A stretch of 64,000 bases of DNA from a virus (lineage: Duplodnaviria; Caudoviricetes), in IMG/VR virus record IMGVR_UViG_3300033066_001150, positions 1 through 64,000 of that record, one strand, 5' to 3'. The notes below the pieces were generated by a model. That model did not search any database. It worked only from the letters and a program-made list of their open reading frames with translations, and was not told the origin of the DNA. Shown here one piece after another: positions 22,254 to 52,733 of this stretch; position 1 is the first letter of the stretch, and each line of letters begins with the position of its first letter. The position numbers and the translations under genes were made by a program.

Positions 22254-22269
22254 GGCGTTTCCTTATGAC

Positions 22270-22338
22270 GGGGACTTGGAACCCCTGACCCAACATCGGG
22301 TCAGTGCATTACAGGGTGCGAAGCGCCCTGTCCTCTGC
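22270..22338 (-). ncRNA. twister-like ribozyme
   Basis: Same core, P3 CTGACCC/GGGTCAG. Confidence 0.8.
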
Positions 22339-31370: not shown

Positions 31371-32933
31371 ATGCCCCCTTTTCAGACTATGGACCCTGTC
31401 CAGTTCGTGAAACTTTGTTGGCCAGATATTACTCTGTATCGCCAACAACGGGAGATCATGTACTCGGTTCGGGATAATATCGATACAGTAGTCCCCGCCG
31501 GTCACCAGTTGGGGAAGGACTTCGTTTCGGGACTGATTGTCCTGTGGTTTTTCGTGGCCCATCACCCTGTCCGTATCGTAACGACGTCCGTGGACGGTAC
31601 CCAATTGGAAGGGGTGTTGTGGGGGGAAATTCGCCGTTTTCTCCAGACCTCGAAATATAAGCTCCCCATTGTTATCAATCATCTCCACCTCAAGAAAACA
31701 TACAAGGGGGAGGTTGATGGATTGAGCTATGTGATTGGACGTGTTGCGGCCCGTGGGGAAGGTCTGTCCGGTCACCACATTGCCCGGCGGGAGTACAGCT
31801 CTCCCCACACGTTAGCCGTAATCGACGAGGCCTCCGGTGTGGACCCGGTGTCCTATGAAAAGATGATTGAGTGGGCTCACCGACGCTTGATCATTGGCAA
31901 CCCTTACCAGTGCGACAACTTCTTCAAGTACGCTGTGAAAGGAAAGCCGGGCACAGAGGACCGGGGCGGTGACTTGAAATCGGACTACGTGTTTCCAGAC
32001 GGACGCGAGTCCTACCTCCGCAAAATTATTCGCATCAAGTCAGAAGACAGTCCGAATGTCCGTCGGGCTTTGTATCAGATTTCCCAAGGCTATGAACCGG
32101 ATCGCAAGATCATTATTCCGGGGGTCATTGACTATGACACGTATGCCCTTGCCCGCAAGACGTGGGACCCTGTTAAGCAGTGTGCTGGACTGGATGCTGA
32201 CTTCTACGAAGGTGCGGAAGTTCTGATGTTTCCAGCTGTGTGGTTGAACCGGGCTGAGGAAATTGCGGCTACACTTCCCACTCGACGCATCGCCAAGGCC
32301 ATAGGTGTAGACCCCGGAGAAGGCGGTGCGAATACGGTGTGGACCGCGGTGGACGAGTTGGGGGTGATTGAACAGTTGAGTATGAAAACACCGGACACAA
32401 GTATGATCCCTGAGCAGACAATTGTGTTTGCCCGGGAACATGGCTGCCCGATGGATATGGTTTTCTTTGATGCTGGTGGCGGTGGGATCCAGCATGCGTG
32501 GGTTCTCCGACGGGCGGGGTTCAAGGTCCAGACGGTCCGTTTTGGGGAACCGGCGACGGCTCCCTTAAAACGTGGACAACGAATGCTCGAGGAACGGAAG
32601 CAGATTCAGGAACAACAATACGTCTATGCGAACCGGCGGGTGGAGATGTACCACATGGCTCGGCTTCTGCTCGATCCCGGGTACACGGAAAAGGGGTGGG
32701 GTATTCCTCGGCGGTTCGTGGAACTGCGACGTCAGTTGTCTCCGTTGCCTTTGATATACGACGAAAAAGGGAAGATGATACTACCTCCCAAGAACCGCAA
32801 ACCGGGTTCCACCAATCGTCAGAAAACACTGGTTGATATCCTAGGCTGTAGTCCCGACGAATCCGATAGTATGGTATTGGCGGTCTTCGGAATGCGTCGA
32901 CAAACCAAACGCAAACTCGGAAAGGCATTTTAG
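31371..32933 (+). CDS. terL: terminase large subunit
   Basis: AGHQLGKD, VIDEASG, IGNP, IGVDPG, SPDESDS. Confidence 0.9.
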   Translation: MPPFQTMDPVQFVKLCWPDITLYRQQREIMYSVRDNIDTVVPAGHQLGKDFVSGLIVLWFFVAHHPVRIVTTSVDGTQLEGVLWGEIRRFLQTSKYKLPIVINHLHLKKTYKGEVDGLSYVIGRVAARGEGLSGHHIARREYSSPHTLAVIDEASGVDPVSYEKMIEWAHRRLIIGNPYQCDNFFKYAVKGKPGTEDRGGDLKSDYVFPDGRESYLRKIIRIKSEDSPNVRRALYQISQGYEPDRKIIIPGVIDYDTYALARKTWDPVKQCAGLDADFYEGAEVLMFPAVWLNRAEEIAATLPTRRIAKAIGVDPGEGGANTVWTAVDELGVIEQLSMKTPDTSMIPEQTIVFAREHGCPMDMVFFDAGGGGIQHAWVLRRAGFKVQTVRFGEPATAPLKRGQRMLEERKQIQEQQYVYANRRVEMYHMARLLLDPGYTEKGWGIPRRFVELRRQLSPLPLIYDEKGKMILPPKNRKPGSTNRQKTLVDILGCSPDESDSMVLAVFGMRRQTKRKLGKAF

Positions 32934-35681: not shown

Positions 35682-36062
35682 TGATCACTTCCATTTTCTG
35701 TCTGTTGCTTGTGGGTGTGCTGGTGCTGCAGTTGGTATTGCGGTGCCAGCTTCTTCGCCTTCGGGGGGACCTACGTCAGTTCCACGAAGACCAGAAAAAT
35801 CAGACCACACTCACTCCCAACAACCAAACAATGTGGGATGACTAATGCCCTCAGTCTCTTTCCCTGCTCCGCTTCTTCCCCAGCCGGTTCCCCGGGAACG
35901 TCAGTGTCTCCGGTGTAATCGGCTTTTCGTATCTATGGGCCCCAGCAATCGCATCTGTGAGGATTGTCAGGACAAGAACAAACGACAAGGTCGCCGGGCC
36001 AGCAAAGAGTCCAATTGCGGCTGTTGCACATCATTAGGTCGAACACCTCGCGGAGATTAGAT

Positions 36063-39000
36063 ATGGCGAAGAAGAAACCTCGCCCACGTACTGCTTCCAC
36101 TCCTGTCAGTAATTTCCGTGAACAGTTGATGGACATGGCCCTCAATGCCCAGTCGACCCGCTGGGGGTATCTGCAGTCATTGATGGACCCACGTCGGGAT
36201 ATTGATCAGGAGTGTGGGTACGACGCCTCCCGGGAACACGACCCGCAGCTTTATCGGGAACTGTTTGACCGGAACCCTATCGCCTCCCGGGTCAATAAAC
36301 TGTTCCCGTCCGAGACGTGGGGACTTCCCCCTGAAATCTATGAATCGGAGGACCCCAAGGCCAAGACCCCATTTGAAGAGGCTTGGTTGGAACTGGGGGC
36401 CTCCTTGGGTGGGGAGAGCTGGCACGAGGACTTGACTTGTTCGTCTATTTGGGAAGTGCTCCGTCGGGCGGATATTCTTTCGGGGATTGGTCACTTTGGT
36501 GTGATCCTGCTGGGCCTCAGTGATACGGCTGATTTGTCTGAACCCGTAGAAGAGATTGACAAAGAGGGTAAGAGCGTATTCACCGCGAAGAAGAAAAGCG
36601 GGAATGTTCGAAACGCCAAGCAGCCACGCCGTCTGTTGTACATGCGGGTCTTCGACGAAACCCAAGCCACCATCCAGAGCCTCGAGACCGATCCCAGCAA
36701 CCCCCGCTACGGACAACCAACTCACTACAATATCAATTTCTATAATGTGAATAATCAGTCCGATGGGCAAATTGTGTCCTCTGTGGGGACCAAGGTTGTT
36801 CACTGGACCCGTATTATCCATGTCACGGATAACGTTCTTTCTAATGAACTGATGGGTGTGCCCCGGTGCAAGCCAGTGTTGCATCGACTGCTGGACCTGA
36901 ACAAGCTTTACAGCGGGTCCGCGGAGATGTACTGGAAAGGAGCCTTCCCCGGCTTGTCCATTGAAACACAGCCCCAGTTGCAAGGGGATGTGGAAATCGA
37001 TGCGGAAGCTATGCGCTCGCAGATGTTCGACTACATGAACAGTCTGCAACGCTATCTGACATTGACCGGGATGTCTGCCAAGACCTTGTCCCCCACGGTG
37101 GTCGACCCCACAACGCAGATCAATGTGCAGTTGGAAGCCATTTGTATTGAGTTGGGTGTACCGGTCCGAATTTTCAAGGGCAGTGAACGTGGGGAACTGG
37201 CTTCCAGTCAGGACGCTGCGGCTTGGTTGGACCGGGTTAAAGATCGCCAGCGGATGATTACAACGCCGCGGCTGGTGGTCCCCTTAGTCAACCGGCTGAT
37301 TCAAGTGGGGGTGTTGCCGGTTCCCAAGAAGTACGTGACTCATTGGCCGGATATGGCGTCTCTGAGTGAGGAAGAACAAGCCCGCGTCGGGACACTGATT
37401 GTTGACGTCATGGCGAAGTATATCCAAGGCGGCTTGGAAGTCATGATGACACCGATGGACTTTATGATGCGGCTGTTACACTTCTCACAGGAGGAGGCCG
37501 AGGGGATTTTGGAAGCCGCTATTGAAGCTGCGGACACACAGCAGCAACTCACAACCGACCCTGCCGCTGGACAAGACCCCGGACAAGGTGGGGCGCCGCC
37601 TTTGGGACCGGATGGACAACCCCTGCCCATCGGGCCGGATGGGAACCCTGTTGGACCTGATGGTAAGCCGGTGGAATTGGGACCGGATGGACAACCGCCC
37701 CAGCAAGTGGATGAGGACGGGAAACCTGTGGAACCCGTGGACGAAGAAGGGAACCCGGTGGCGGGACAACAACCCACCGGGTTCCCTGTCCCGGGTAAAA
37801 CACCCCCACACTTGGCAGCCTTTGCCAAACAAGCCGCACGTACAGGACGGCCCATTCCTCCGGGGCAAAAACAAGTGGCTCCGGGACAAGGGAAGCAGCC
37901 CATTCCCAAGAAGAAACCACAAGTCCGTAATAGACTGGCCGGGATTGTGGGACAGGCCGTGGACAAGGCCCGGCGCGTCTGGAATAACAAAGAGGTATAC
38001 CCCAAGATCAAGGCAATGGGTCTGTTTCTGCGTGAGACCGGACAAGCCATGCCCGGCTATGGTCAAATCTTCTATAAGACTGATGGTTCGGGTCAGTGTT
38101 GGTACGTGGGCGGGGATGGGGATGGGGACGGTTTCTACAAACTGGTTCAACGCAAACTGAAGACCATCCCCGGTGTCAAGTCTGTGACCTACGAAGCCGA
38201 AGTTTTCCCACCAAAGAATAATAAGTGGCATCAGGTCTACCCCCAGCAGAGGGCATGGGTGGGCAATGCCTTTTGTCCGACCGGTCCCGGTGGGGGACAG
38301 GACAATAGCTGTGCTCCTAAGGGAGGAACCGGACCCACAGATAGTCAACGAATCAGTGCCACAGTGCTAATCATGAAAACAAAGACAAGCACTATGGGAG
38401 AGAAAGGTACTATCCGCGAAGAAAAACGCCACACAGTCTCTATCAAAGATAAGGAAATTGGGACTATTGTTGAAAGACGGATCGCTAAGTCGGCGACTCA
38501 AGGTGGCGGTTACGAAAAGGTGATGGAAGCTGTTTATAAGGATGGGACTGTTCTGGGGCAGGTCAGCAGTCTTGTTCTAGGCAAGGAACGGTTGGCCCAG
38601 CACCGTTTGGAGAGAAGCAAGGCTAAGGCGGGGTCCACATCCAACGTCTTCTGTCCCACGGGACCGGGAGGTGGGGTGGACCCAACCTGTTCCCCCAAAG
38701 GTGGCGGCGGTGGAGGTGTCTCCGGCAAGGGGTCCGGTCGCATTTATAACCCGGACGTTGAGGAACGGGACTCGGCAGGGGTTACAAAGGCAGCCCGTGT
38801 GGGAGTGCCTGCCGAACACGTACCGCCTCCACCTCCCATCGGAAAGCTTCCCAATCTGACAGAACACGAACGCGAGGTCGAATCTAAGTTCGCAGAAGCC
38901 TACGAGGCGGACCCGGATGGGGTGGCTGATAAGTTCCGCGAGCTGGTCAAGGCTTCTGCCAAACCGGGTGAGCCGTTGACCTTTGGAACAGACGACGCCA

Positions 39001-39698
39001 AGGCCCTGACCGACGTGTGGTCCCACCCCGACCAAGACCAGCGTGCGGAGTACCGGGCCAGTCTCAACACTCCCTTACACCAGACAGCGAACGCGATCGC
39101 TAAGCGGGCCTTCGTGCGTGAGTTGGACAACCTGCAGGAAGGGGATGAGATTCTGGTGACCGTGGGTGGCTGTGGGGCTGGTAAAGGTTATGCCCTCAAG
39201 AATGTGCCCGAAGCCTTGGCAATGAAGCAGGGTTCCAAGATTATTTGGGACAGTGCCGGAGACCAGAATGCTACGGAGAACCCGTGGATTCAGAAGGAAG
39301 CGGAAGCTCGTGGACTGAAAGTCAACTATGTCTACGTGCATGCTGACCCTTATAAGGCATGGGCCGACCCGGAACGTGGGGCGATTCAACGGGCCAAAGA
39401 TCCCAAGGATGGGCGAATGGTGGACGCCAAGGTGTTCGCCGATAGTTATGCCTTGGGGATTAAAAACCACGCGGCGTTCTATGAAGCGAACAAAGACAAC
39501 CCCAGTGCTAAGTTTGCCTTCTTGGATAACCGGACGAAACCCAGCCTTATGGATATGATTCCGGACGAAGGGCTGCAGTTGGACCGCCACGAGTTGTCCA
39601 AGTTTGCCGTGAAAGCTGTGGAACAGGCACAAGCCCCGGATCGTGTGGTTCGTGGGGCCTTGATCGGGCAGCGTATCTGGGCAGGAGAAAACATCTAA
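36063..39698 (+). CDS. portal protein (DUF1073-like) with C-terminal cargo, including a zeta-toxin-like P-loop kinase
   Basis: Portal core (NPRYGQP, HWTRIIH, SAEMYW, IFKGSERGELASSQD); Pro/Gly linker; two tag copies; GGCGAGKG...YVHAD...RA...GRMV. Confidence 0.85.
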   Translation: MAKKKPRPRTASTPVSNFREQLMDMALNAQSTRWGYLQSLMDPRRDIDQECGYDASREHDPQLYRELFDRNPIASRVNKLFPSETWGLPPEIYESEDPKAKTPFEEAWLELGASLGGESWHEDLTCSSIWEVLRRADILSGIGHFGVILLGLSDTADLSEPVEEIDKEGKSVFTAKKKSGNVRNAKQPRRLLYMRVFDETQATIQSLETDPSNPRYGQPTHYNINFYNVNNQSDGQIVSSVGTKVVHWTRIIHVTDNVLSNELMGVPRCKPVLHRLLDLNKLYSGSAEMYWKGAFPGLSIETQPQLQGDVEIDAEAMRSQMFDYMNSLQRYLTLTGMSAKTLSPTVVDPTTQINVQLEAICIELGVPVRIFKGSERGELASSQDAAAWLDRVKDRQRMITTPRLVVPLVNRLIQVGVLPVPKKYVTHWPDMASLSEEEQARVGTLIVDVMAKYIQGGLEVMMTPMDFMMRLLHFSQEEAEGILEAAIEAADTQQQLTTDPAAGQDPGQGGAPPLGPDGQPLPIGPDGNPVGPDGKPVELGPDGQPPQQVDEDGKPVEPVDEEGNPVAGQQPTGFPVPGKTPPHLAAFAKQAARTGRPIPPGQKQVAPGQGKQPIPKKKPQVRNRLAGIVGQAVDKARRVWNNKEVYPKIKAMGLFLRETGQAMPGYGQIFYKTDGSGQCWYVGGDGDGDGFYKLVQRKLKTIPGVKSVTYEAEVFPPKNNKWHQVYPQQRAWVGNAFCPTGPGGGQDNSCAPKGGTGPTDSQRISATVLIMKTKTSTMGEKGTIREEKRHTVSIKDKEIGTIVERRIAKSATQGGGYEKVMEAVYKDGTVLGQVSSLVLGKERLAQHRLERSKAKAGSTSNVFCPTGPGGGVDPTCSPKGGGGGGVSGKGSGRIYNPDVEERDSAGVTKAARVGVPAEHVPPPPPIGKLPNLTEHEREVESKFAEAYEADPDGVADKFRELVKASAKPGEPLTFGTDDAKALTDVWSHPDQDQRAEYRASLNTPLHQTANAIAKRAFVRELDNLQEGDEILVTVGGCGAGKGYALKNVPEALAMKQGSKIIWDSAGDQNATENPWIQKEAEARGLKVNYVYVHADPYKAWADPERGAIQRAKDPKDGRMVDAKVFADSYALGIKNHAAFYEANKDNPSAKFAFLDNRTKPSLMDMIPDEGLQLDRHELSKFAVKAVEQAQAPDRVVRGALIGQRIWAGENI

Positions 39699-40064: not shown

Positions 40065-40379
40065 ATGTTAGACAGATTTACTACAGTCATCGAAAAGCCG
40101 TTTCCACTCGAGGCCCACGACCGATCAACCCCTTCGGTGGGGGAGTTCTGGGTCTTTGTGGAAGACGGGAACCCGGTGGCGGTGGAGTTCGTGTGTCCGT
40201 GTGGGTGCGGTCATAACCTCCACACACCGCTCGGACTGTCATCTCCGCATCACTGGGAATACCGGGCTGGGAGTGAGGGGCCGACTTTGTCCCCTTCTGT
40301 TCGTTGGACGAGTGGGTGTAAAGCGCATTTCACGGTGACCAATGGCAAGATTCATTGGTACTCTGATTCTGGGAAGTAG
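40065..40379 (+). CDS. DUF6527-like Zn-binding protein
   Basis: CPCGCG...PTLSPSV...CKAHFTVTNGKIHW. Confidence 0.7.
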   Translation: MLDRFTTVIEKPFPLEAHDRSTPSVGEFWVFVEDGNPVAVEFVCPCGCGHNLHTPLGLSSPHHWEYRAGSEGPTLSPSVRWTSGCKAHFTVTNGKIHWYSDSGK

Positions 40380-40381
40380 AC

Positions 40382-43300
40382 ATGCCACGGACCATTCCGC
40401 AACCTCGGGGCTTTTATAACCGCCGGCTCGGTCAGGGTCTCACACGTCGGGACCCCACCCGCACGGCGACCTTGCGGAAGATATTTTCTAATGAACTGCG
40501 ACGACGGATGAGTCGGTTGTTTGCGGATTCGTGGAAGCTGTTGGAAGATAATGGTCTGACAGAGAACGCCTTCTGTCCGACAGGTCCGGGCGGTGGAGTT
40601 GACCCAACCTGCAGTCCAGATCAAATTAGTATACAGCAGGCTTTCGATAGAATGCCATTCGGAGACAACCCCAAGGGGTACACATGGGCTTCGTTGTCTC
40701 TGACTACCTTGGACTCCCTGTTGAAGACAGGAAAGCTCGGATTGATCCATGATGTTGGGGAGTTGTCCGAGGACAGTGTATTATCTAAAGTGAATTCTAA
40801 GAAACTCAACCCTCTAATTGTTACGAAAATAGGGCAGCGGTTTCTTGTTGTGGATGGAAACCATTCTCTCGAGGCGGCCCGTCGTCTTCGGGTGGATTCT
40901 GTGAAAGCCATTGTTCCTAAGAAGTCCCTCTTGTCCTTGAACGCCTTCTGTCCCACTGGAAAGGGCGGTGGTCAAGACAATAGTTGTTCCCCTTCCAACA
41001 AAGGCATGTCTGCTCCGTTTGAAGCGGTGATGGGTCATTGGGACGCCATGCGCTCCAAAGACGCCTATAAAACAATGGGAAAGATCTGGAAATCGGACTA
41101 CGAGGGCACTCGTTGGTTCGACTACACACCAAAGCCGGGGACCAAGGCTTATAAAGAGTTGGATGCTTCGATTAAGTCCGGAGAACTTGTCCGGGAGTTT
41201 GAGGAGCGGTTCGCCTCGGAAGATAAGGAAGTGATGATGATTATCCATCCTTCCTCAGATGACATGTACAACCGAGAAACAGCAAAAGTCTCGGTCTACA
41301 CTTCTTCTAATCGTAACGAAGTCACTCCACATGACCAACCCTTGTCTGGTCGCATTCTGACTCATAATCATCCAGATGGGGCTAACCTATCCTTGTCTGA
41401 TGTAAAAACTGCGGTCCGGAAAGGAGTCCAGGAAATTAGGGCGGTTACTCCAGACGGGACCGTGTACAGCCTCAAAAAGGCAGAAAGCTACTATAAAAAA
41501 CCAGATGGGACACAACACAAGGCGGTTCGTGGACCGGGACAAGATGCTATTGATAAGCGATTAGGGGAGGCTATTCGAAAGCATGTAACTCTCGAAGAAG
41601 CTCAACTCCCCTTAGGCCAACAGCAAGCCATCTATGAAAAAGTCTGGAAGGCGTTTACAAAGGAACCGTTCGTATCAGAGTCCGCTGAAGGGGGCCAACA
41701 CTACACAAGGTACGAGTACACTGTGTCCCGTCGGACGGAGAACGTCTTCTGCCCGACTGGACCGGGCGGAGGTGTGGACCCCACATGCTCTCCTTCCAAT
41801 AAAGGGACAGCGAATGTACCGCAAACTCCGGAAGAGTGGGAAGAGCATTTCCAACATATCAATTTTCTAGGAACGAAGCGAGTTGTAGAGGACCGTGCAA
41901 AAGAGTGGAAGTATCACGCCCCGGTAAACGTGGAAAACGCCGTTGGTCGAAACTTTGAACGGGGTGGGGTCCAGTGGGAGGAAGGCGGAAATTGCCAACT
42001 GGAAACCGGAGTGGTGACTATTTACTCCCGGTCCGTTGGTAGTTCCGTGGAAAATGTGGAACGGATTACAAACCATGAACTGATGCATGGTACGTTCGAA
42101 AAGGTCTATGATAAGTACCGACGAGAACTGGGGAAGATTACCATAGATCACATTCATATGGATGGGACGCTGAAAGCGGAACATTTCAACGAATTCCCCA
42201 CGTATGGTCGAATTCAGGCTCTGTTGGAAAATCATGGCCAGTTCTCTTTAGGCAAGGCCCTACAAAAAGAGGACGGGATTACGGACTATAGCCGGGCTTA
42301 CTGGAAGGATTACGAAGAAGGAAAAGTCAGTTACCATATAGCGGTTCATGAGACCTTGGCGGAAATCGCAGCTATTCATGGAACAACTGGTGTTATCCAA
42401 GGGGAAAAGGTGTGGCGGGATCTCTACAAAGGCATTCGGGACGAGTATCGGGTTCTCCAAGGTCATCAGTCCCGTCGACGTGGTCCCGGTATCCCTAAGC
42501 CGGTCAAGAACTACTCCACGGAAACCGTTTATTTGGATGGGGATTTTCGGCGTGTCCCCCCAGAGCAAGCTGTTTTCATTCATTGGTGGGATGACGCTGG
42601 TTCCCACTGGGGGACTCGGAAGCCCCCGACAAACAATTTCGCCTCTACGCAATTCAATGTCGACGAAGTGGGGGTGCTGACCGCGGTCCATGTTATTCAG
42701 TCCCATCTGGATTCCCGGGATGTGTTAGAACTGGAAACCCAGCCACATATCACGGTTCGGTATGGTCTCCATGATCAGGAAGCTTCGGGTGTGCGGGCGT
42801 TGTACGACAACCAAGTCCCGGTCCGGGTCAAACTGGGTGGCTTGTCCTTGTTCCAGACACCGAAGGCGGATGTGCTAAAAATTGACGTGGATTCCCGTAG
42901 TCTTCCGGCCATTCACGGGCGATTGGGCCTGCTTCCCCACACGAGCACCTTTCCCACGTATATTCCCCATTTGACAGTCGCCTATCTGCGACCGGGCACA
43001 GGTCATAAATACGTGGGGAAAAGCGGTCTGGAAGGGACCGTGTTGACTTTTGATAAGTTGGTGTTCTCGGATGACAACCGTCGGCAGACTACCGTGTCCA
43101 ACGCTTTCTGTCCGACAGGACCGGGGGGTGGACAGGACAATTCCTGTCCACCTAATAGACAGGCGGAAAGTAGCAGCCTTGTCGTTCCAGTACGGTACAC
43201 AGGAAAGAAGGGAACGCCTGTAGAGGTAGTCCACAACCCCACTGAAAAAACACTGAAACGATTAGTGAAAAAGGAAAGGCTCAAGGGGTTGTTGGACCTC

Positions 43301-44815
43301 AAAAACGGTACATGGCATTTCTGGTCAGAGGAAGATGGGGAGCATGAAGATGTAGCCAGAGGAATGGGACTTTCCTCCGGTAATGTGTTCCGTGATGGGA
43401 TAGAGTATGTTCGCCTCTATGCTATAAAGGACCCTCTTAGTCTGGAGGCTCGGATAGCCACGGCTTCCCATGTGGACACACCACTGCCGCGAACACCGTT
43501 TCGGGTACACAACGCCTTCTGTCCGACAGGACCGGGAGGAGGTGTTGATCCGACTTGTAGTCCAAAGGGTGGTTCTAGTCCTGTGACGAAAGCGATCAGG
43601 GAATATGGACCAGTTTTGGCCGAGAGTCGTCAGGGTGGGTACACACTTCGAGTACACGACGAAAATCCAAAGTCGGAGGGACAACCAGCCCATATAAGTG
43701 ATGAGGAAAAACCTTTTTCTGGTGCTGGTCGTATGACCATCGAGTCCCCAGATGGAGAACTTGTAATCGCTGGGAAGTGGATGGATTGGGCGGAAGTACA
43801 TTACCCATCCGACTACACAAAACTCCCGAAAAAAGACAGAGCTGCTCTAGAAGCACAAGAGCAGCTAAAATACGATTTACAGAAGAATTTCCATTTTCAT
43901 AAGGAACGGGGTGGTCTAGTCGCCAACACCTACGACCCTGTCCGTTATCGAGTCTCCAAGTTCGTAAAAGAGTTCACCGCCCGTGTCAAGTCCACGGTCA
44001 AGGATAAACCGTGGTGGGTTGGCTTTATCAATTCTGGATATCAGACGGGTGTGGGTCGAGCATATGACGATCTGAACAAACCAGCTCTGATGACACCAGA
44101 AGAACGCAAAGCTTATCAGGCCGAACGACGGTCCTTCGTTCGGGGCGTTGTAAAGGCGTCCGGTCCGACTGCTCAGAAGTTGTATGCCTCTGTGGAAGAG
44201 GATATTGACCGGATTACAAGTCAGTTGGGAGACAAGCTGCGGGTACAATTGAAACAGGCCCTTGCCGAGGGGTTGTCCTTACGCAAAGTTGCTAAGGGGA
44301 TTCTTGCCAAGGTGGAGGAGGAAGGGTTGCGACGGGCCACAAACGTCGCGAACTATCGCACAGTGGAGGCCCATAACGAGGGTCAGTTAGCGGCCTTTGA
44401 AGACTTGGGTGTGACGGATATCGGTGTGTTGGTAGAATGGACCGTGGCTGGGAACCCGTGCCCACTGTGCAAGCCGATGGCCGGTGTGGTGCTTCGGCCC
44501 AAGGACGCTCATGGATTGATACCCAGACACGTCCATTGTCAGTGCTGTTTCGAGGTCGTGGGAAGTGGGTTCGGGGCTGATAAGGAGGACCTGATTGTAG
44601 ACCGATCGGGGATTCGTAAGGCTATCAAGAAATCCATTTCCCGGGAACGTAAGCAGGGCACGTGGAAAGACAAGTTGGAAGCCACACAATGGAAAGGCCG
44701 GTCGGTGCGGGTGGAAGGGCGGCCCTTGTTCAATGAGGAAGCCTCCCCAGCACTTCGGGCTTTCAGTCAATTCGTGACTTCGCACAAAGCCGCACAGGTC
44801 GAGGAAACACCATGA
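40382..44815 (+). CDS. MuF/SPP1-gp7 head morphogenesis protein with inserted multi-domain cargo
   Basis: N-terminal DPTRT helix; C-terminal VEW...CPLC...IPRHVHCQC; internal ParB-N, JAB, HExxH and 2H domains; five tags. Confidence 0.85.
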   Translation: MPRTIPQPRGFYNRRLGQGLTRRDPTRTATLRKIFSNELRRRMSRLFADSWKLLEDNGLTENAFCPTGPGGGVDPTCSPDQISIQQAFDRMPFGDNPKGYTWASLSLTTLDSLLKTGKLGLIHDVGELSEDSVLSKVNSKKLNPLIVTKIGQRFLVVDGNHSLEAARRLRVDSVKAIVPKKSLLSLNAFCPTGKGGGQDNSCSPSNKGMSAPFEAVMGHWDAMRSKDAYKTMGKIWKSDYEGTRWFDYTPKPGTKAYKELDASIKSGELVREFEERFASEDKEVMMIIHPSSDDMYNRETAKVSVYTSSNRNEVTPHDQPLSGRILTHNHPDGANLSLSDVKTAVRKGVQEIRAVTPDGTVYSLKKAESYYKKPDGTQHKAVRGPGQDAIDKRLGEAIRKHVTLEEAQLPLGQQQAIYEKVWKAFTKEPFVSESAEGGQHYTRYEYTVSRRTENVFCPTGPGGGVDPTCSPSNKGTANVPQTPEEWEEHFQHINFLGTKRVVEDRAKEWKYHAPVNVENAVGRNFERGGVQWEEGGNCQLETGVVTIYSRSVGSSVENVERITNHELMHGTFEKVYDKYRRELGKITIDHIHMDGTLKAEHFNEFPTYGRIQALLENHGQFSLGKALQKEDGITDYSRAYWKDYEEGKVSYHIAVHETLAEIAAIHGTTGVIQGEKVWRDLYKGIRDEYRVLQGHQSRRRGPGIPKPVKNYSTETVYLDGDFRRVPPEQAVFIHWWDDAGSHWGTRKPPTNNFASTQFNVDEVGVLTAVHVIQSHLDSRDVLELETQPHITVRYGLHDQEASGVRALYDNQVPVRVKLGGLSLFQTPKADVLKIDVDSRSLPAIHGRLGLLPHTSTFPTYIPHLTVAYLRPGTGHKYVGKSGLEGTVLTFDKLVFSDDNRRQTTVSNAFCPTGPGGGQDNSCPPNRQAESSSLVVPVRYTGKKGTPVEVVHNPTEKTLKRLVKKERLKGLLDLKNGTWHFWSEEDGEHEDVARGMGLSSGNVFRDGIEYVRLYAIKDPLSLEARIATASHVDTPLPRTPFRVHNAFCPTGPGGGVDPTCSPKGGSSPVTKAIREYGPVLAESRQGGYTLRVHDENPKSEGQPAHISDEEKPFSGAGRMTIESPDGELVIAGKWMDWAEVHYPSDYTKLPKKDRAALEAQEQLKYDLQKNFHFHKERGGLVANTYDPVRYRVSKFVKEFTARVKSTVKDKPWWVGFINSGYQTGVGRAYDDLNKPALMTPEERKAYQAERRSFVRGVVKASGPTAQKLYASVEEDIDRITSQLGDKLRVQLKQALAEGLSLRKVAKGILAKVEEEGLRRATNVANYRTVEAHNEGQLAAFEDLGVTDIGVLVEWTVAGNPCPLCKPMAGVVLRPKDAHGLIPRHVHCQCCFEVVGSGFGADKEDLIVDRSGIRKAIKKSISRERKQGTWKDKLEATQWKGRSVRVEGRPLFNEEASPALRAFSQFVTSHKAAQVEETP

Positions 44816-46218
44816 ACTCAGATATGACTGACGAAGAATACAATCTGGCACTTCTCCGGAAGTTCAGTCGGGTCTCCACACGAAACGCCTTCTGTCCTAC
44901 TGGTCCGGGCGGGGGACAGGACAATTCGTGTTCGCCGAAAGGGGATTCTGCCTATCAGGAAATGGGGAAACGGGCTGCTTTTCTACAACTTGAGACCAAT
45001 GACAAAAAACTCAAGGACGCCTATCTGGGCAGCCAATCGGCTTCTTACGTGTCGGGTCTTGCGGATAAAACCAATGAAATGGAAGACAAGAAGCGATGGA
45101 GGGCTTTGCATACAGACGCCGAAACCAGTCACAAAGCGGCATTACGTGCCTTGAAGAAGCTGGACGGAGACAAAGACCTAATCCAATACCATAAGGAAGC
45201 GTCCCAGCATCATAGCAATGTCTTAGGCGGTGCGGGGGCCCTTCGTCACTCTACTTACGTCCGTTCGGATATTGGGAAAAAGCGCCGGGGCGGATCGACA
45301 CGGAATGCTTTCTGTCCGACTGGTCCGGGTGGGGGAGTAGACCCAACATGTAGCCCCTCCTCCACCACCAAAGGCGGCGAGGACCTTTACAGCGCAACCC
45401 TCGGGAAGGACAAGGTGTGGCGTGTGGGGAAATTACCGGTCCCAGACCACATTCGCAAGCTGGCTATTCCCCCAGCATGGACCAATGTGGAAATCAACCC
45501 CAACCCCAACGGGACAGTCCTAGCTAAGGGGTTGGATTCCAAGGGCCGGGTCCAGACACGATATAGTGATACACATACGGCCCGTCAGTCGGCTGCCAAG
45601 TTTGGTCGGACCCGGGAACTGCTCAAAAAGCGCGAACAGATTTTCAAGGAACTGGATAAGGACGCCAAGGACCCCACACTCAAAGAGCATGCGGAGTGTC
45701 TGAAAGTCATTATGCAGACAGGAATGCGTCCCGGAAGTGATAAGGACACCAAAGCCGAACACGAGTCCTTCGGGGCCACGACTTTGCTGGGTCGCCATGT
45801 AATTCCCCAAGCGGACGGCAGTGTGGTTCTCCGGCTGGCAACCGGCAAGAACAAAGGCCGGGAGGTCGACTTTCCCATTCAGGACAAGGCCACGGCCGCT
45901 ATGCTGCGGGCGCGGGCTAAGGAAACTGGCAAGTCGGGTCGTTTGTTTGGAACAACGGCAGCCCAGTTGCGGAATTATAGTAAGACGAAAGACGGAGGTG
46001 GCTTCAAGACGAAGGACCATCGTACGGCGCTGGGCACGGAGACCGCACTGCGGGCTATCAAAGGGATTAGTAAACCTAGCACCGAGTCCGAATATAAGTC
46101 CCGAGTGAAGGAAGTGGCGACTCGTGTTGCTGCGGTTTTAGGGAACACGCCTCCAATCGCCCTCAAGTCCTACATCGACCCGCAGGTCTTTACTGCTTGG
46201 AACAAGGGATTGAAATGA
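44812..46218 (+). CDS. tagged polyprotein with C-terminal type IB topoisomerase
   Basis: IPPAW, DSKGRVQTRY, GMRPGS, FGATTL, KDHRT, LGNTPPIALKSYIDP; two tags. Confidence 0.88.
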   Translation: MNSDMTDEEYNLALLRKFSRVSTRNAFCPTGPGGGQDNSCSPKGDSAYQEMGKRAAFLQLETNDKKLKDAYLGSQSASYVSGLADKTNEMEDKKRWRALHTDAETSHKAALRALKKLDGDKDLIQYHKEASQHHSNVLGGAGALRHSTYVRSDIGKKRRGGSTRNAFCPTGPGGGVDPTCSPSSTTKGGEDLYSATLGKDKVWRVGKLPVPDHIRKLAIPPAWTNVEINPNPNGTVLAKGLDSKGRVQTRYSDTHTARQSAAKFGRTRELLKKREQIFKELDKDAKDPTLKEHAECLKVIMQTGMRPGSDKDTKAEHESFGATTLLGRHVIPQADGSVVLRLATGKNKGREVDFPIQDKATAAMLRARAKETGKSGRLFGTTAAQLRNYSKTKDGGGFKTKDHRTALGTETALRAIKGISKPSTESEYKSRVKEVATRVAAVLGNTPPIALKSYIDPQVFTAWNKGLK

Positions 46219-46660: not shown

Positions 46661-46732
46661 CTGGTTTATCCGCTGGTAAAAAAAATTTAACTCTGTAGAG
46701 TGTTCCGGACTCTGTCGTTACTCTCGACAGCC

Positions 46733-49700
46733 ATGGAACACTATACCTTCAACTTCACGGGTCGGGCGCGGCGTGAGAAGCTTCACGGTCGTGAGTTTCT
46801 TGTTGTTCCCCTGACAATGATCGTCCCCGGTGTCCTCAACGGAAGCCAAGGGGCGTTATTCTATCCCCCCAGCGAAATTAAGCGGAATTCGCAGGCGTGG
46901 AATGGTATCCCGTTGACGGTGGGTCACCCCACACGTAACGGCCAGCAACTCAGTGGTCGGGACCCCTCGGTGTTGAACGAGACCGGTGTGGGGTTTGTGT
47001 TCCATGTCCGTTCCGAAAGCGGTAAGCTGAAAGGCGAAGGTTGGTTTGACGTTGAGGCGGTTCGGAAAGTTGATAATCGAATCTACGACGCCATTATCAA
47101 TGGCCGTAAGATGGAACTGAGTACGGGCCTCTTCACGGACAATCACCCGGCGACCCCCGGTTCCAGTTACAATGGGCGTCCGTACACCCATGTCGCCCGG
47201 AACTATCGTCCGGATCACTTGGCTATTCTTCCTGATCAGGTTGGAGCATGTTCCGTGGAAGATGGGTGTGGGGTCAATGTCAACATAGCAGCTGATCAAG
47301 AAGAGTGTTCCTGTGGCGGTCAGTGTGATGAATGCAAGGCCGGTTTGGAAGAAAACCAAGCTGAGGGGTGCACCTGTGACACGTCAGGCCCCGAGGGGTG
47401 TCCGGTTCACGGCGACACCGAGAAGGTTACCAACTCCAAGCAAGTGATCTGGAACGAGATTGGCAAGGTGTTGGGGATTCTTGAAGCAGTAGAAAATGGA
47501 ATTGTCCAACCACACTCCAAGAATACGGGACGATTCAAATCACCTAGTGCGGGCACGGGAAAAGGGCCTGTCCACGAAGCCGCTCAACGAGGTGCTTTGG
47601 CACTAGACCCAGATGATCATGCTAAGGGCGCCTCCGCCAAAGCCGAAGCAGATGTTGGGACCAACCCAGCTAGCTGGGTGGAGGATGAGGATATTTGGGA
47701 TCGAGCTAAGAAGGCAGCGGATGCTGGGGAGTACGACGCCGACACTTATTGGGCTGTCGTGTCCCATATCTATAAACGGATGGGCGGCAAGTCCAAGTCG
47801 GAAGGGACTACCGACAACGCAGACGACGACTGCCAGTGGGTGACCGCTAGTGGGACCCCTATCTGTATCAAGGGCGGGGAAGTCAAGAAGGGCCCTTCTG
47901 CTCTCAAAAAAGCAGCCGCCAGTGACGGCAAGAAAAGTTCCCACTTCAAAACCAAGGACCGGGACGAAGTCGCCCAGAAAGAAGGTTTCCGCAAACATAG
48001 TGACAAACAGAAGGCACAGGACAAGGCGTTGGGGAAAGCCAACAAAGACGCCATGGATAAGGACCTTGGAGATCTGAAAAAAGAGCTCTTTGGCAAACAG
48101 GGGAAGGCTCAGGCTGCCGGGGAAGTCCACAAGAGGGACCCCATGTTGACCGTTAAGGGCGCCGCCAAAGTGATTGGCAAGCATCTCAAGTCGGGTCTGT
48201 CTAAGGCCGGCGCTCTTGCGGATATGATTGGAACAAAACTGCTGGGCAAGGACGACTTCGAAGCGATCAAAAACATCCCAGATGATGTGAAATCCCGGTT
48301 CCGGAACTTGTTCAAGAAGGGCAAGTTCACGTCCAATGGGGTTGTAGCAATTCATCCAGTCACATTGGAGTGCCTCGTGGAAATGGGTCTTGTCTACAAC
48401 GCTCGTGTGAACAACGCTTTCTGTCCAACCGGTCCCGGTGGCGGTCAGGACAATTCCTGTTCCCGGTACGGTGACGGTGGTTCCTCTAAAGAAAAGGCCG
48501 TGGCCAAAGCTTTAAGCAACTTCAAGATCAAAGAGAACGGGGAATGGTCTTCTGTTAAGGTGGGGTCCCGTGCTTACAAGATTAGAAAAGTCGGTTCCGG
48601 TTACGAAGCTGTCAGTCCTCTTAAAACAAGGACAATTGGGAAAACCGCAGAATCCGCGTTGACCTCTGTTATAGATGTTCGTGACATCCCAAAGGGAACC
48701 GCCACGGACATCGGGGCCAAAGGCCAACAATTCAATAACCCCAAATCCGATGAGGACGCCCAGTTCTTTAAGTCCCGGGCAAGTGCTGAGGCATTTGTGA
48801 AGGAAGCGACGGACAGGGGGTATGATGTAGACTATTCCCACAAGGGAGGCACGTCCCAAGTCCGCATTCAAGGTGTGACAGACGACAACAAGAAAGAAAT
48901 CCGGGCCCTTGGTGATAAGCACGGTCGTGAGAAATCGATCTGGGAACAACCTGTCCCTCCACCACGTGGGACCGCCGCGAAGGACTTGGAAAAGTCCGCG
49001 GTTAGTAAACGCCAACTCGCCAAGGAGTTGAAGGCGGAACGCGCAGCACGGGAAGCCGCCGCAAAGGCCCCTCGAAAAGATGAGGAGGTGTTTGCACGGT
49101 GGAAAGCCAAACAGAAGAAAACGAACAACGCCTTCTGTCCTACTGGTCCTGGTGGGGGTCAAGATAACTCGTGTTCGTCCAAAGGTGGAGGTGGAGGTGT
49201 TAAGGTAGGGGACAAGGATGCGAAAGGCCGCACAGTAATTTCCGACGAGGTCGCATCCATGGGGGCGTCTCTAGCAGACAAACTCAACACTGCGGGTCGC
49301 AAAAGCGATGCGGCCGTAGAGGTATACTCCAATGCTAAGTATCATCGGCTGAAGAGAGAGCAGAAGAAAGCACCTGAGCTCGAAAAGAAAATGAAGGAAG
49401 TCACAAAGCAGTATTATAAGGCCCGCGACGAAGCAGAGGCTTTTGAAAAGAAACATGGCTTGTCTGTTGTCGACGCATGGGAGGCGGATCGCGGTCGAGG
49501 TTGGCCTAGCTACAAGGTGGACACAAGAACTGACACACGTCCTAAGTTCGTACGGCAGTCAGATTCTGAGCCACACAAAACTGAAAATTCGTCGGTGGGG
49601 AATCGCTCCCACTCCGCACGACGCCCACGGTTGGGAGCGAATGTTGTAGGAGTTCGAGATATGAAGCGGGGACAGGTCATCGACGCCCTCGTGAGCAACT

Positions 49701-50353
49701 GTGATTGCTTTGACGAGGAAGATCGGGACACGTTGAACAGCCTCGAAGACGGCAAGCTGGTCCGACTCTATCAGAGTCTGATTGGCAACGCCACTTATGA
49801 GGACGAAGAAGAGGAAGCGCCGGCCGACGACGAAGAGATCATGGAAGACGACGAAGAGATGGAAGATCCGGCTCCGAAGAAGAAGCCCGGTGGATTCTTT
49901 CAGAAGAAGGCCATCGCCAATCGCCGAAATTCGTCGGATGCCATTGCGGCATCCATTCTTCGCAGTCGACGCAAACCCATGTCGGCGGATGAGTGGTTTG
50001 GTACCGCTCCTCCGGAAATCAAGTCGGCTGTCCAGAACGCCATGAAGCTGGAAGCGGAAACGAAGCGGGGCCTGCTGGACCGTCTTACGGCCAACGTCGC
50101 CGACGACAAGGTCCAGTCGGTGCTCAATTCCCTCAAGGACAAGTCCATCGAAGAACTCGAAGGACTGCTGTCCCTGTTGCCGCCGCCGCGGGCCATCAAC
50201 GCCCCCAGCTTTATTGGGGCCGCGGTGCCGTTCCCGGGTCGCACCACGAACGAACAAGCCATCAGCAATGATGACGATGATGTTCTGCCACTGCCCACCA
50301 TCAACTACGCCGATGAGTTCGGGACTCGGCGCAAGACTGCCACGGTTTCGTAG
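46733..50353 (+). CDS. DUF2213-type prohead protease / scaffold with inserted cargo
   Basis: GIPLTVGHP, ELSTG, YNGRPY, DHLAILPDQVGACS; acidic coiled C-terminus; two tags; directly upstream of the capsid genes. Confidence 0.85.
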   Translation: MEHYTFNFTGRARREKLHGREFLVVPLTMIVPGVLNGSQGALFYPPSEIKRNSQAWNGIPLTVGHPTRNGQQLSGRDPSVLNETGVGFVFHVRSESGKLKGEGWFDVEAVRKVDNRIYDAIINGRKMELSTGLFTDNHPATPGSSYNGRPYTHVARNYRPDHLAILPDQVGACSVEDGCGVNVNIAADQEECSCGGQCDECKAGLEENQAEGCTCDTSGPEGCPVHGDTEKVTNSKQVIWNEIGKVLGILEAVENGIVQPHSKNTGRFKSPSAGTGKGPVHEAAQRGALALDPDDHAKGASAKAEADVGTNPASWVEDEDIWDRAKKAADAGEYDADTYWAVVSHIYKRMGGKSKSEGTTDNADDDCQWVTASGTPICIKGGEVKKGPSALKKAAASDGKKSSHFKTKDRDEVAQKEGFRKHSDKQKAQDKALGKANKDAMDKDLGDLKKELFGKQGKAQAAGEVHKRDPMLTVKGAAKVIGKHLKSGLSKAGALADMIGTKLLGKDDFEAIKNIPDDVKSRFRNLFKKGKFTSNGVVAIHPVTLECLVEMGLVYNARVNNAFCPTGPGGGQDNSCSRYGDGGSSKEKAVAKALSNFKIKENGEWSSVKVGSRAYKIRKVGSGYEAVSPLKTRTIGKTAESALTSVIDVRDIPKGTATDIGAKGQQFNNPKSDEDAQFFKSRASAEAFVKEATDRGYDVDYSHKGGTSQVRIQGVTDDNKKEIRALGDKHGREKSIWEQPVPPPRGTAAKDLEKSAVSKRQLAKELKAERAAREAAAKAPRKDEEVFARWKAKQKKTNNAFCPTGPGGGQDNSCSSKGGGGGVKVGDKDAKGRTVISDEVASMGASLADKLNTAGRKSDAAVEVYSNAKYHRLKREQKKAPELEKKMKEVTKQYYKARDEAEAFEKKHGLSVVDAWEADRGRGWPSYKVDTRTDTRPKFVRQSDSEPHKTENSSVGNRSHSARRPRLGANVVGVRDMKRGQVIDALVSNCDCFDEEDRDTLNSLEDGKLVRLYQSLIGNATYEDEEEEAPADDEEIMEDDEEMEDPAPKKKPGGFFQKKAIANRRNSSDAIAASILRSRRKPMSADEWFGTAPPEIKSAVQNAMKLEAETKRGLLDRLTANVADDKVQSVLNSLKDKSIEELEGLLSLLPPPRAINAPSFIGAAVPFPGRTTNEQAISNDDDDVLPLPTINYADEFGTRRKTATVS

Positions 50354-51009: not shown

Positions 51010-52170
51010 ATGTTCGTGGATTACGTGCTCAATGGTCAGGGACATGGTCCCGTGGCCGAGCAGCTGATGGGGACTCACTTCGATCCCGGTCTTCTCCGAC
51101 CGTATATCGACAGTCGTGGTCGCAAGGTTGTGATGGTCCACACGGGCCAGTTCGCCACCAACAAAGACACGGGTCGTCAAGAACCCATCTACAAGAAGCG
51201 CCTCGTGAGCGAGCTTGTGGCGGGTGGGATGTACTCCCCGGTCTTCAACGCCACGTCCCTGCGGAAGCAGGAGTGGGTGCAGCTGGATTCGGTGGTGCTC
51301 AAGGCCGCCCGTGCCCGGTTGCGAGCGTGGGGGGATTTGGCCGCGTCGAACACTTATAGCGGTTTCAACGGCATGAGCCGGACCGTGCTCGAACACGAGC
51401 AGATGAGTGATCCCGGCGAGGCGATGGTCGATATGGATGGCCTGACCGAAGGCCGTTCGGACCGTCCCCGGTTCGATCTGCAGGGTCTCCCCCTGCCGAT
51501 CACTCACAGTGACTTCTGGTTCAGTTCGCGGCAACTGGCGGTCTCCCGGAATACGGGAACCCCGCTGGACGCCACGATGGCCGAAGCCGCTGGACGCCGC
51601 GTTGCCGAAATGATTGAGAAGACGACCATCGGCACCATCACGGGGATGCGGACGAGCAAGGTGGGCAGCCTGCTGTCCGCCGCACCGCAGGTCTACGGGT
51701 ATACGAACTACCCGCAGCGCATTACCAAGAACGACCTCACTGTTCCAACCGGTTCCAATGCCGGTTCGACGGTGGCTGACGTTTTGGAAATGCGGGATAT
51801 GTTGTACGACGTCAACCGCTTTGGCCCGTTCATGCTGTACCACAGCAAGGACTGGGACCAGTTCATGGACAACGACTACGTCCTGACCGGTGGCAACGTT
51901 GCAACTCAGACCCTGCGCGAGCGCCTTCGGGCCATTGAAGGGATTCAGGATGTCCGTCGCTTGGACTTCCTGACCGATACCTTCACCCTGTTGATGGTCC
52001 AGATGACCCCGGATGTGGCCCGTGCCGTGATCGGGATGGACCTGACGACGGTGCAGTGGGAATCGCAAGGCGGTATGCGCTTGAACTTCAAGGTCATGTG
52101 CATCCACGTGCCCCAACTGCGCAGCGACTTCAACGGTTCGTGCGGGATTCTCCACGCCACCACGGCGTAG
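51010..52170 (+). CDS. major capsid protein (HK97 fold, encapsulin/linocin-like)
   Basis: NATSLRKQEWVQLD, PLPITHSDF, YGYTNYP, GPFMLY, PQLRSD. Confidence 0.88.
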   Translation: MFVDYVLNGQGHGPVAEQLMGTHFDPGLLRPYIDSRGRKVVMVHTGQFATNKDTGRQEPIYKKRLVSELVAGGMYSPVFNATSLRKQEWVQLDSVVLKAARARLRAWGDLAASNTYSGFNGMSRTVLEHEQMSDPGEAMVDMDGLTEGRSDRPRFDLQGLPLPITHSDFWFSSRQLAVSRNTGTPLDATMAEAAGRRVAEMIEKTTIGTITGMRTSKVGSLLSAAPQVYGYTNYPQRITKNDLTVPTGSNAGSTVADVLEMRDMLYDVNRFGPFMLYHSKDWDQFMDNDYVLTGGNVATQTLRERLRAIEGIQDVRRLDFLTDTFTLLMVQMTPDVARAVIGMDLTTVQWESQGGMRLNFKVMCIHVPQLRSDFNGSCGILHATTA

Positions 52171-52253: not shown

Positions 52254-52733
52254 ATGGTCAAGACACAGAAGCCCCCCAAACAAAAGATGCGTTTCCGATT
52301 GCTGCAAGGCCTGCACACCACGGGGCGTCAACAAGACACCACGAAGATGACGGTTCTCCAGCAGCAGTTGGACGAGGGCATGATCACACAAGCCCAGTTC
52401 GACGAACAGACCAAGGACCTCCAACCCCGGCGTATTTTCCACGCCGGTGAAATTGTGGAAAGTCGGACGGACCTGCTTCGCCTCAACGGTCCCCATCCGA
52501 TGGTCCCCAAGTTCGCACGGGCGGACGAGGACGTGGCCTCGATGGTCCCACAACCGTATCAGTCCCCGGAAACCCGACCGGCCCCGGTGGATGTGGACGA
52601 CACGTTGACTGGGATGACGTTGGAGCAACTGAAGAAGATGGCCCGAGCCGAAGCCATTGATATCAAGGGCCTGACGACTGTGGAAGAGATCGCCGACCGG
52701 ATTCGACAGTCCATGGAAGAACTGGACGCCTAA
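52254..52733 (+). CDS. post-capsid protein with Rho-N-like tail
   Basis: LTGMTLEQLKKMA...IDIKG. Confidence 0.55.
   Translation: MVKTQKPPKQKMRFRLLQGLHTTGRQQDTTKMTVLQQQLDEGMITQAQFDEQTKDLQPRRIFHAGEIVESRTDLLRLNGPHPMVPKFARADEDVASMVPQPYQSPETRPAPVDVDDTLTGMTLEQLKKMARAEAIDIKGLTTVEEIADRIRQSMEELDA

Follow-up and report, generated by a model that had tools for sequence, protein, structure and literature searches.

A MuF-type minor head protein of an uncultured tailed phage, opened at the hinge after its first helix by a six-module cargo with Cys-loop tags

In phage T4, the internal proteins and Alt carry an N-terminal capsid-targeting sequence that is cut by the gp21 prohead protease after Glu. Alt is also cited in the description of the phage-type polyvalent proteins (Iyer, 2017; PMC5512222), in which MuF, zincin metallopeptidase (MPTase), ParB, RadC-type JAB and 2H are named as hub or cargo domains, and for which capsid packaging, injection and proteolytic processing are predicted. 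A further described class, the MuF polymorphic toxins, combines an N-terminal MuF with one C-terminal toxin domain and is usually accompanied by an immunity gene (Jamet et al., 2017; PMC5576092). The subject of the present analysis is P0001, a protein of 1477 amino acids (aa) encoded on the + strand of IMG/VR virus record IMGVR_UViG_3300033066_001150. The source contig is a single molecule of 97,978 bp from an uncultured tailed phage of ~98 kb; the window, that is, the whole stretch of DNA analysed, is its first 64 kb (64,000 nucleotides, nt), and the + strand of this window carries the phage head and tail module. P0001 is a minor head protein of the MuF (SPP1 gp7 / Mu gpF) type whose chain is interrupted at the hinge that follows helix 1: an insert of 1,127 residues separates that helix from the MuF core, and this insert is divided by copies of a conserved cysteine motif, here called the Cys-loop tag, and by joints that end in Asn.

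P0001 is a clear member of the phage-type polyvalent proteins: unrelated enzyme domains stand in one polypeptide beside portal and packaging genes, at least two disparate activities are present (2H and zincin by fold, with a probable ParB-like unit), and the gene is encoded with the portal-terminase genes. Unlike the fusions to MuF described for that class (PMC5512222), the cargo lies between MuF helix 1 and the core; moreover, zincins are proposed there as processing enzymes, whereas the joints of P0001 fit a head protease better. A text search of the same paper found no mention of linker or cysteine motifs, of the Cys-loop tag or of Asn joints. Like the MuF polymorphic toxins (PMC5576092), P0001 is a MuF head protein that carries variable effector domains; unlike them, it has an internal six-module cargo and a C-terminal MuF core, and the next open reading frame (ORF) encodes a tagged topoisomerase IB rather than a small immunity gene. 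Neither insertion nor cleavage is mentioned in the toxin paper, and a full-text literature search for the letters of the tag returned only two unrelated parechovirus papers. Although proteins of this class are known, the insertion site inside MuF, the Cys-loop tag and the Asn joints were not found in the literature and appear undescribed.

The ORF and the two parts of its MuF lie as follows.

40382..44815, + strand: whole ORF, split MuF polyvalent head protein P0001, 1477 aa (open frame; relatives)
40382..40564, + strand: MuF N-terminal part S0, with the DPTRT helix at aa 22-56 (nt 40445-40549) (cargo-free profile; phrog_758)
43922..44812, + strand: MuF core, aa 1181-1477, a helical bundle with a Cys4 knuckle and the tail PALRAFSQF (cargo-free profile; PF04233; TIGR01641)

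The start of the ORF is backed by the near-identical N-terminus of P0002, its closest relative, and 94 long relatives were found. That so long a frame arose as an assembly or gene-calling artefact joining several genes has a negligible probability, given 1477 uninterrupted codons, tags that are all in frame, and the same architecture in independent contigs from other samples.

P0001 is read as a MuF opened at the hinge because a MuF profile built from 16 cargo-free, tag-free relatives only, and searched against the whole ORF, matches in two collinear pieces: residues 22-56 correspond to profile positions 6-40 (E 4e-7) and residues 1197-1445 to positions 76-329 (E 1e-64). The same layout is found with phrog_758 (head morphogenesis), of which positions 25-60 are matched by the first 61 residues alone and positions 105-249 by the C-terminal piece, again collinearly. 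Pfam and PHROGs locate the MuF core near the C-terminus, at aa 1207-1438; the PF04233 match of P0001 reaches 23.7 bits (E 8e-5), under the Pfam cut-off of 29.6, and that of TIGR01641 an E of 0.0016, while P0133 and P0006 from the broader relative set pass PF04233 at 59-67 bits. A word-based search with the core alone for short MuF homologues found none, and an exhaustive search with aa 1062-1477 then gave 2428 relatives at E<=1e-3.

Cargo-free MuFs of 301-350 aa show what the uninterrupted protein looks like. All of them start with NPLR-x-DPTRT-x2-LRR-x-F...RRF...EDAFGL, followed by 20-35 residues, the joint x-x-N before T-R-W, and the core. In P0001 the N-terminal part ends in the hinge motif EDNGL, where relatives read EDAFGL, and the knuckle cysteines C1360, C1363, C1386 and C1388 of the core align with nearly invariant cysteines (CxxC...CxC). 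The DPTRT helix and the C-terminal CxxC...CxC knuckle that mark the MuF subfamily are thus both present, the core domain is matched, and the gene adjoins the portal gene in the head module. The first-pass annotation of this DNA had placed the cargo inside MuF, behind the N-terminal DPTRT helix and ahead of the remainder, and not at the C-terminus as in the MuF toxins (Jamet et al., 2017), and had MuF resuming at about 43925. The two-piece collinear matches and the shared DPTRT start of the cargo-free homologues bear this out: the core resumes at VAN-TYDP, nt 43922, only a 30-residue tail follows its matched part, and the segment coordinates given earlier were correct to within a few codons. 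Its wording of a split MuF holds for the full-length MuF protein, which is divided at the hinge, but not for the Pfam-defined MuF domain, which is uninterrupted.

A further question is whether helix 1 belongs to MuF at all, since a DPTRT helix acting as an independent leader (a capsid-targeting peptide) would give the layout leader, cargo, MuF, with no split. In favour of such a leader, Pfam PF04233 does not cover the helix, which a conserved Asn joint parts from the core even in cargo-free MuFs, and 16 tagged relatives carry further cargo N-terminal to it. Nevertheless, helix and core co-occur in 122 of the 144 listed representatives described below and the helix was never found without the core; cargo-free relatives lacking the helix, or the helix on a separate unrelated protein, were looked for and not seen. 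As a proxy for P0001, the 440-aa relative P0095 (helix, tag, homologue of cargo 6, core; 36% identical to the last cargo module and core of P0001) was folded from an alignment of 26 sequences. In this model the predicted local distance difference test score (pLDDT) is 83-95 for the helix (residues 28-55) and 80-97 for the core, and low for the tag and the cargo module, whose predicted fold is of low confidence. With the low-confidence stretch trimmed, most of the best-scoring alignments with compact helical bundles begin at residue 20-28 and end at ~386-389, taking in the confidently predicted helix together with the core helices. At E<=1e-3, 59 predicted structures of viral minor capsid (head morphogenesis) proteins match the model; against solved structures the model returned no MuF-like structure, only generic helical bundles. 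A helix 1 that is a member of the MuF core bundle fits this model of a relative, and the separate-leader layout is accordingly given a very small probability. MAFFT alignments in which aa 907-1477 were set against whole relatives were not used for folding, as they placed the helices of the relatives wrongly, on aa 925-1043.

To place P0001 among its relatives, 144 newly returned representatives among the 150 listed by a MuF-based search were surveyed, of which 122 have both helix and core. Helix and core are contiguous (gap <40 aa) in 45 of these 122 listed representatives; the hinge holds an insert of at least 80 residues in 57 and of at least 150 in 42, and a C-terminal extension of more than 100 aa is found in 70 of the listed representatives. 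Among tagged MuFs with both parts (n=92), tags lie in the hinge in 59, at the C-terminus only in 17 and before the helix in 16. P0001 has the second-largest hinge insert of 192 and the most hinge tags, and the 2H phosphoesterase is the commonest hinge insert, with or without tags. The hinge layout is therefore unusual against the published picture of MuF toxins but not unusual in nature, and is common in this MuF subfamily. As a separate observation, the MuF relatives P0009, P0011, P0014, P0029, P0031 and P0065 have precomputed intein-splicing or Hint matches, and in P0009 the MuF core lies in three pieces, which suggests inteins inside MuF.

Residues 62-1180 of P0001 are divided by five Cys-loop tags and three untagged joints, and the cargo comprises six modules.

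40619..40939, + strand: cargo 1, probable ParB-N/Srx-like unit, aa 80-186 (convergent weak matches; BLASTP to P0023)
40994..41740, + strand: cargo 2, 249-aa unit, aa 205-453, possibly JAB/RadC-like (motif only)
41795..42637, + strand: cargo 3, zincin-like metallopeptidase, aa 472-710, with a small C-terminal beta piece (YLDGDF), aa 711-752 (fold; motifs)
42638..43099, + strand: cargo 4, 2H phosphoesterase, aa 753-906 (PF13563; VIA; Foldseek)
43154..43510, + strand: cargo 5, 119-aa module, aa 925-1043 (weak homologues in P0007 and P0010)
43565..43921, + strand: cargo 6, 119-aa alpha+beta module, aa 1062-1180, ending GGLVAN (homologues P0160, P0186, P0095 and P0015)

The earlier description of this cargo as a stack of ~1100 aa agrees with the 1,127 residues of the insert, but its count of at least seven domains has to be lowered to six independent ones. 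The 42-residue YLDGDF piece, joined to the zincin at VKN-Y, is counted in the zincin module because the two are always co-inherited: it trails the zincin at a conserved x-x-N joint in all four proteins with the full unit, including a free-standing 282-aa protein, and the pair recurs in P0239, P0005 and P0003.

The best-founded identities are those of cargo 3 and cargo 4. The zincin, of a type present in 5 of 265 collected relatives, is confirmed at the fold level: its predicted model (pLDDT 80-95 over aa 481-701) shows a beta-sheet, a HExxH helix and a downstream Glu helix, with H565-E-L-M-H569 and E657 in place, and both HELMH and HETLAE, from which a HExxH zincin had first been called, are present. 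VIA matches the model to anthrax lethal factor (Z 8.3, root-mean-square deviation (rmsd) 5.9, 171 residues aligned) and, at Z 5-6, to other zincins (PPEP, M32, M13 and M1 peptidases); Pfam gave no match. Cargo 4, which begins at the untagged joint TNN-FASTQ, is confirmed as the 2H phosphoesterase it was initially taken for by both HxT motifs (H789-I-T791 and H863-L-T865), by PF13563 at 29.8 bits against a cut-off of 27, and by its fold (aa 748-903; VIA Z 10.3), which aligns with Usb1, mouse hepatitis virus (MHV, a coronavirus) ns2 and CPDase over 137-155 residues at an rmsd of 3.1-4.5. The match to the Acb1 family PF23474 (22.4 bits) is under the cut-off of 27, and the fold match to phage FBB1 Acb1 (Z 8.9, 21% identity) is no better than to other 2H families. 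In the relatives P0166 (L006:1001-5395), P0180, P0171, P0140 and P0126, a tag-flanked insert breaks up the 2H domain; that of P0166 has a zincin between its first and second HxT halves.

The remaining modules are less firmly assigned. Cargo 1 is probably a ParB-N-like unit, as first proposed: weak matches to PF02195 (E 0.22), PHROG ParB families (E 0.003-0.5) and TIGR00180 (E 0.066) all converge on one and the same stretch of 40 residues, and P0023, whose Pfam-positive ParB_N region likewise lies between helix and core, is matched in that region by BLASTP with an E of 4e-4; the motif, however, reads DGNHS (aa 158-162) instead of DGxHR, with Ser for the usual Arg. The ESM Atlas offered a partial ParB_N lead, and the AlphaFold2 (AF2) model is not confident. 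For cargo 2, the proposed JAB-like identity has its motif (E283; H328-x-H330-x6-S337-x2-D340), the spacing HxHx6SxxD (aa 328-340) being one residue short of the canonical HxHx7Sx2D, but it is unproven and doubtful: Pfam, PHROG, NCBIfam and PDB gave no match, a scan of viral contigs was likewise empty, no homologue was found among the 265 relatives, the AF2 pLDDT is <50, and the ESM Atlas yielded weak leads only (0.79-0.81). Cargo 5 matched no family in Pfam, PHROG or NCBIfam, and no family is assigned to cargo 6 either.

AF2 was run on aa 62-924, in which the ParB-like and JAB-like segments were unusable for lack of alignment depth, and PDB sequence searches with the ParB-like, JAB-like and zincin segments gave chance-level matches only. 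The confident models respect the joints: the zincin ends near aa 700, the 2H domain spans aa 748-903, and no domain crosses a proposed junction in these two, to which the check is limited by the pLDDT of <50 of the ParB-like and JAB-like segments.

Between the modules stand the five tags, with the consensus N-[AV]-F-C-P-T-G-x-G-G-G-x-D-x-x-C, to which S-P and a Gly/Ser stretch are usually appended.

40565..40618, + strand: Cys-loop tag 1, aa 62-79 (motif)
40940..40993, + strand: Cys-loop tag 2, aa 187-204 (motif)
41741..41794, + strand: Cys-loop tag 3, aa 454-471 (motif)
43100..43153, + strand: Cys-loop tag 4, aa 907-924 (motif)
43511..43564, + strand: Cys-loop tag 5, aa 1044-1061 (motif)

The 11 such tags of the 98-kb genome are confined to four head proteins (portal, MuF, topoisomerase IB and DUF2213-like), and 356 tags were found in 144 of the 265 collected relatives. 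Their codons are scrambled, with 383 of 834 same-residue codon pairs identical; on this ground, and with a longest shared run of 23 nt, a role as DNA repeats or recombination sites was rejected. The tag would rather act as a peptide signal, most likely as a retention or packaging label or as the recognition context for a cut. Other Cys-pair motifs at the N-termini or joints of MuF relatives may be alternative tags: NPFVSEAQR-x-ACYA...WDC in P0012, P0039, P0044, P0052, P0058, P0064, P0068 and P0072; C-x5-G-x-RWG-x3-KCY in P0011, P0050, P0175 and P0191; and WCNQ-x-GG-x2-C in P0005 and P0128.

The genes that carry the other tags, together with further members of the head module, are as follows.

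31371-32933, + strand: terminase large subunit (head module)
35964..39698, + strand: portal protein with two tags and C-terminal cargo (context)
40065..40379, + strand: DUF6527/BubE-family small protein, 104 aa, candidate protease (intact Ser-His dyad and Cys4 site)
44812..46218, + strand: tagged topoisomerase IB ORF, 468 aa (overlaps the MuF stop codon, ATGA)
46700..50353, + strand: DUF2213-like protein at the protease/scaffold position; two tags; highest density of [VTI]-x-N sites (context)
51010..52170, + strand: major capsid protein (DUF6260) (V-F-N-A-T-S-L-R-K at aa 78-86 invariant)

Tail-fibre and tape-measure genes lie 3' of the capsid gene, and the order terminase, portal, MuF, DUF2213-like, capsid is syntenic in four related contigs (L001, L002, L004 and L007). 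The topoisomerase IB ORF opens with a 24-residue leader (…ALLRKFSRVSTRN) that duplicates the MuF tail (…PALRAFSQFV), and in P0002 a tag-module-tag-topoisomerase unit is fused in frame to MuF. A recent frameshift parting MuF from the topoisomerase was considered and, in view of this duplication, rejected. No match came from a megablast search of 50,697 phage records with the head module, and tblastn of the 1477-aa protein against the phage collection returned distant MuF and 2H pieces only, with no tagged relative. Three further observations concern this region: a 159-aa ORF just 3' of the capsid gene (52254-52733, +) has an endonuclease VII-like match (phrog_3281, E 3e-5); the final tagged module of the portal (38697-39695, +) has weak P-loop and zeta-toxin-like matches (E 0.004-0.015); and the related phage contig L002 carries, at 22074-22313 in its structural region, a gene of the Acb2/Tad1-hairpin family (an anti-CBASS/Thoeris sponge family).

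The joints share a signature of their own. Every joint in P0001, tagged or untagged, ends in [VT]-x-N, and the Asn at the three untagged ones (VKN-Y, TNN-F and VAN-T), already noticed in the first reading of the sequence, is conserved in homologues. Of the 356 tags, 320 have Asn at position -3, and V or T precedes this Asn at a distance of two residues. K or R takes its place throughout whole lineages, of which one with K has a different, HK97-type head module; among the tags that lie within the first 13 residues of a protein, 3 of 4 lack the Asn. The same endings occur where no tag follows, both before 2H domains (T-x-N ahead of [LF]-A-S-T-Q, three proteins) and after them, and before the MuF core in at least 97 relatives. 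Furthermore, the capsid motif V-F-N-A-T-S-L-R-K, with Asn in the corresponding place, is invariant in five related phages and lies just ahead of the DUF6260 capsid fold; removal of a capsid propeptide of ~80 residues at the same motif as the cargo joints would fit. Across the genome, [VTI]-x-N is enriched in the four tagged proteins (0.82 versus 0.29 per 100 aa), also once the tag sites are removed (odds ratio 1.97, p 0.006), and its density is highest in the DUF2213-like protein. Autocatalytic cleavage at Asn, in the style of inteins or nodaviruses, was considered and is less likely in view of the K/R lineages and of the residue before Asn, which is not conserved.

From the observed architecture we infer packaging, cutting and injection, and we regard the combined reading as probable, if by no wide measure: the split MuF would load its cargo into the head, a head protease would cut the chain after Asn, and the enzymes would be injected with the DNA. 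Helix 1 and the core would fold into one bundle from which the cargo hangs out as a loop, and MuF, associated with the portal as usual, would carry the chain into the procapsid. The head protease would act as the head matures and cut after the Asn of every joint, including those of the capsid propeptide and the MuF hinge, the best candidate for the cutter being the DUF2213-like protein encoded upstream of the capsid gene, and its specificity would co-vary with the joint residue. Each freed enzyme would keep a tag at its new N-terminus, helix 1 and core would stay behind as a two-piece MuF, and the enzymes would leave with the DNA; their early targets would be nucleic acids, proteins and signalling nucleotides of the host, and the 2H enzyme, to take one case, could break down defence signals of the cyclic-nucleotide or 2'-5' type. 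In this proposal, as in T4, entry into the prohead by a short signal is followed by a cut at a protease motif shared with capsid proteins and by injection with the DNA; unlike the separate small proteins of T4, the cargoes are chained inside a structural protein, and the putative cut would fall after Asn and leave a conserved tag on the cargo.

A bolder form of this proposal, put forward tentatively and rated as less probable, would make the hinge a general excisable cargo-display loop of tailed phages, in which an Asn-specific head protease cuts all [VT]-x-N joints, those of the inserts nested in 2H domains included, the host domain persists as a non-covalent two-piece protein, and the tag is a new portable, possibly metal-bridged signal that holds the cargo or guides its exit.

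Several points weigh against cutting and loading as proposed. That helix 1 packs against the core is deduced from the model of the relative P0095, by its alignment ranges and pLDDT, and not from coordinates of P0001. The lineages of P0048 and P0081 have no N, K or R before the tag, which therefore works without that residue, and a structural role, such as that of a helix N-cap, could explain why Asn is conserved before T-R-W and A-T-S-L-R-K. The conserved N-terminal domain of the DUF2213-like protein has invariant GHP, LS..D and ELSTG-like motifs, yet neither its single sequence nor a 4-sequence profile matched anything in PDB, and the protein is a candidate protease only. Finally, the ParB-like and JAB-like units and the two unassigned modules have no confident models.

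The first of these points on the joints would also suit a chain that is packaged and used uncut, as a giant multi-enzyme ejection protein for which the vRNAP of phage N4 and gp47 of phi24B are the comparison, with the Gly-rich tags as flexible or metal-stabilised spacers and the Asn as a structural residue. We hold this to be unlikely, though it deserves serious weight. The tags and their flanks are predicted to be disordered (pLDDT <50), gp47 of phi24B has been reported as an abundant large polyvalent virion protein, and full-length transfer of some polyvalent proteins has been noted (Iyer, 2017; PMC5512222). Spacers, however, leave unexplained the lineage-wide switch of position -3 between N and K/R, the recurrence of [VT]-x-N at joints without a tag and at the boundary of the capsid propeptide, and the tag-flanked inserts nested inside 2H domains; in addition, a small head protein would have to tolerate a loop of 1,127 residues between two of its parts.

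Another possibility lies in a different cutter, the chain being cleaved by a dedicated small protease, namely the upstream BubE-type protein (maybe inside the tag, after GGG), or by itself, through the embedded zincin in cis. The 40065-40379 product scores 66 bits to PF20137 (DUF6527), a family described in a 2024 preprint as a Ser-His protease with a Cys4 zinc site, and it keeps both catalytic dyad and zinc pattern (CxCxC...S-x6-C-x2-H, with C44, C46, C48, S78, C85 and H88 at the published spacings); known BubE relatives cut after a C-terminal Gly, BubE-like homologues are present in the head modules of L001 and L004, and the HExxH and Glu of the zincin are intact. On the other hand, 4 of 7 loci (L002, L007, L008 and the P0013 contig) have no recorded BubE-family gene within 10 kb of their tagged MuF, yet tags and Asn joints are found in them, and the zincin occurs in so few relatives that the same holds for it. 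The BubE-like gene was on this ground rejected as a universal tag protease, and a dedicated or embedded protease is considered improbable as the general cutter; the BubE-like protein could process polyproteins or, as a counter-defence enzyme, strip ubiquitin-like conjugates of the host.

In a phage head protein that is small and widespread, the hinge marks one definite, repeatedly used place for the loading of extra proteins, and the elements identified here, namely helix, hinge, tag, module and [VT]-x-N, supply a loading grammar that makes the cargo-loading rule directly testable. At least 144 tagged relatives are at hand, none of them in the cultured-phage collection. If the proposed reading is true, tailed phages would pack early-acting enzymes by a polyprotein strategy, as many eukaryotic viruses do, and several of the cargoes resemble counter-defence activities, such as 2H enzymes that destroy signalling nucleotides. 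Hinge and tag would then also offer practical handles for packaging chosen proteins into phage heads, and many unannotated giant ORFs of metagenomic phages would become readable as tagged cargo.

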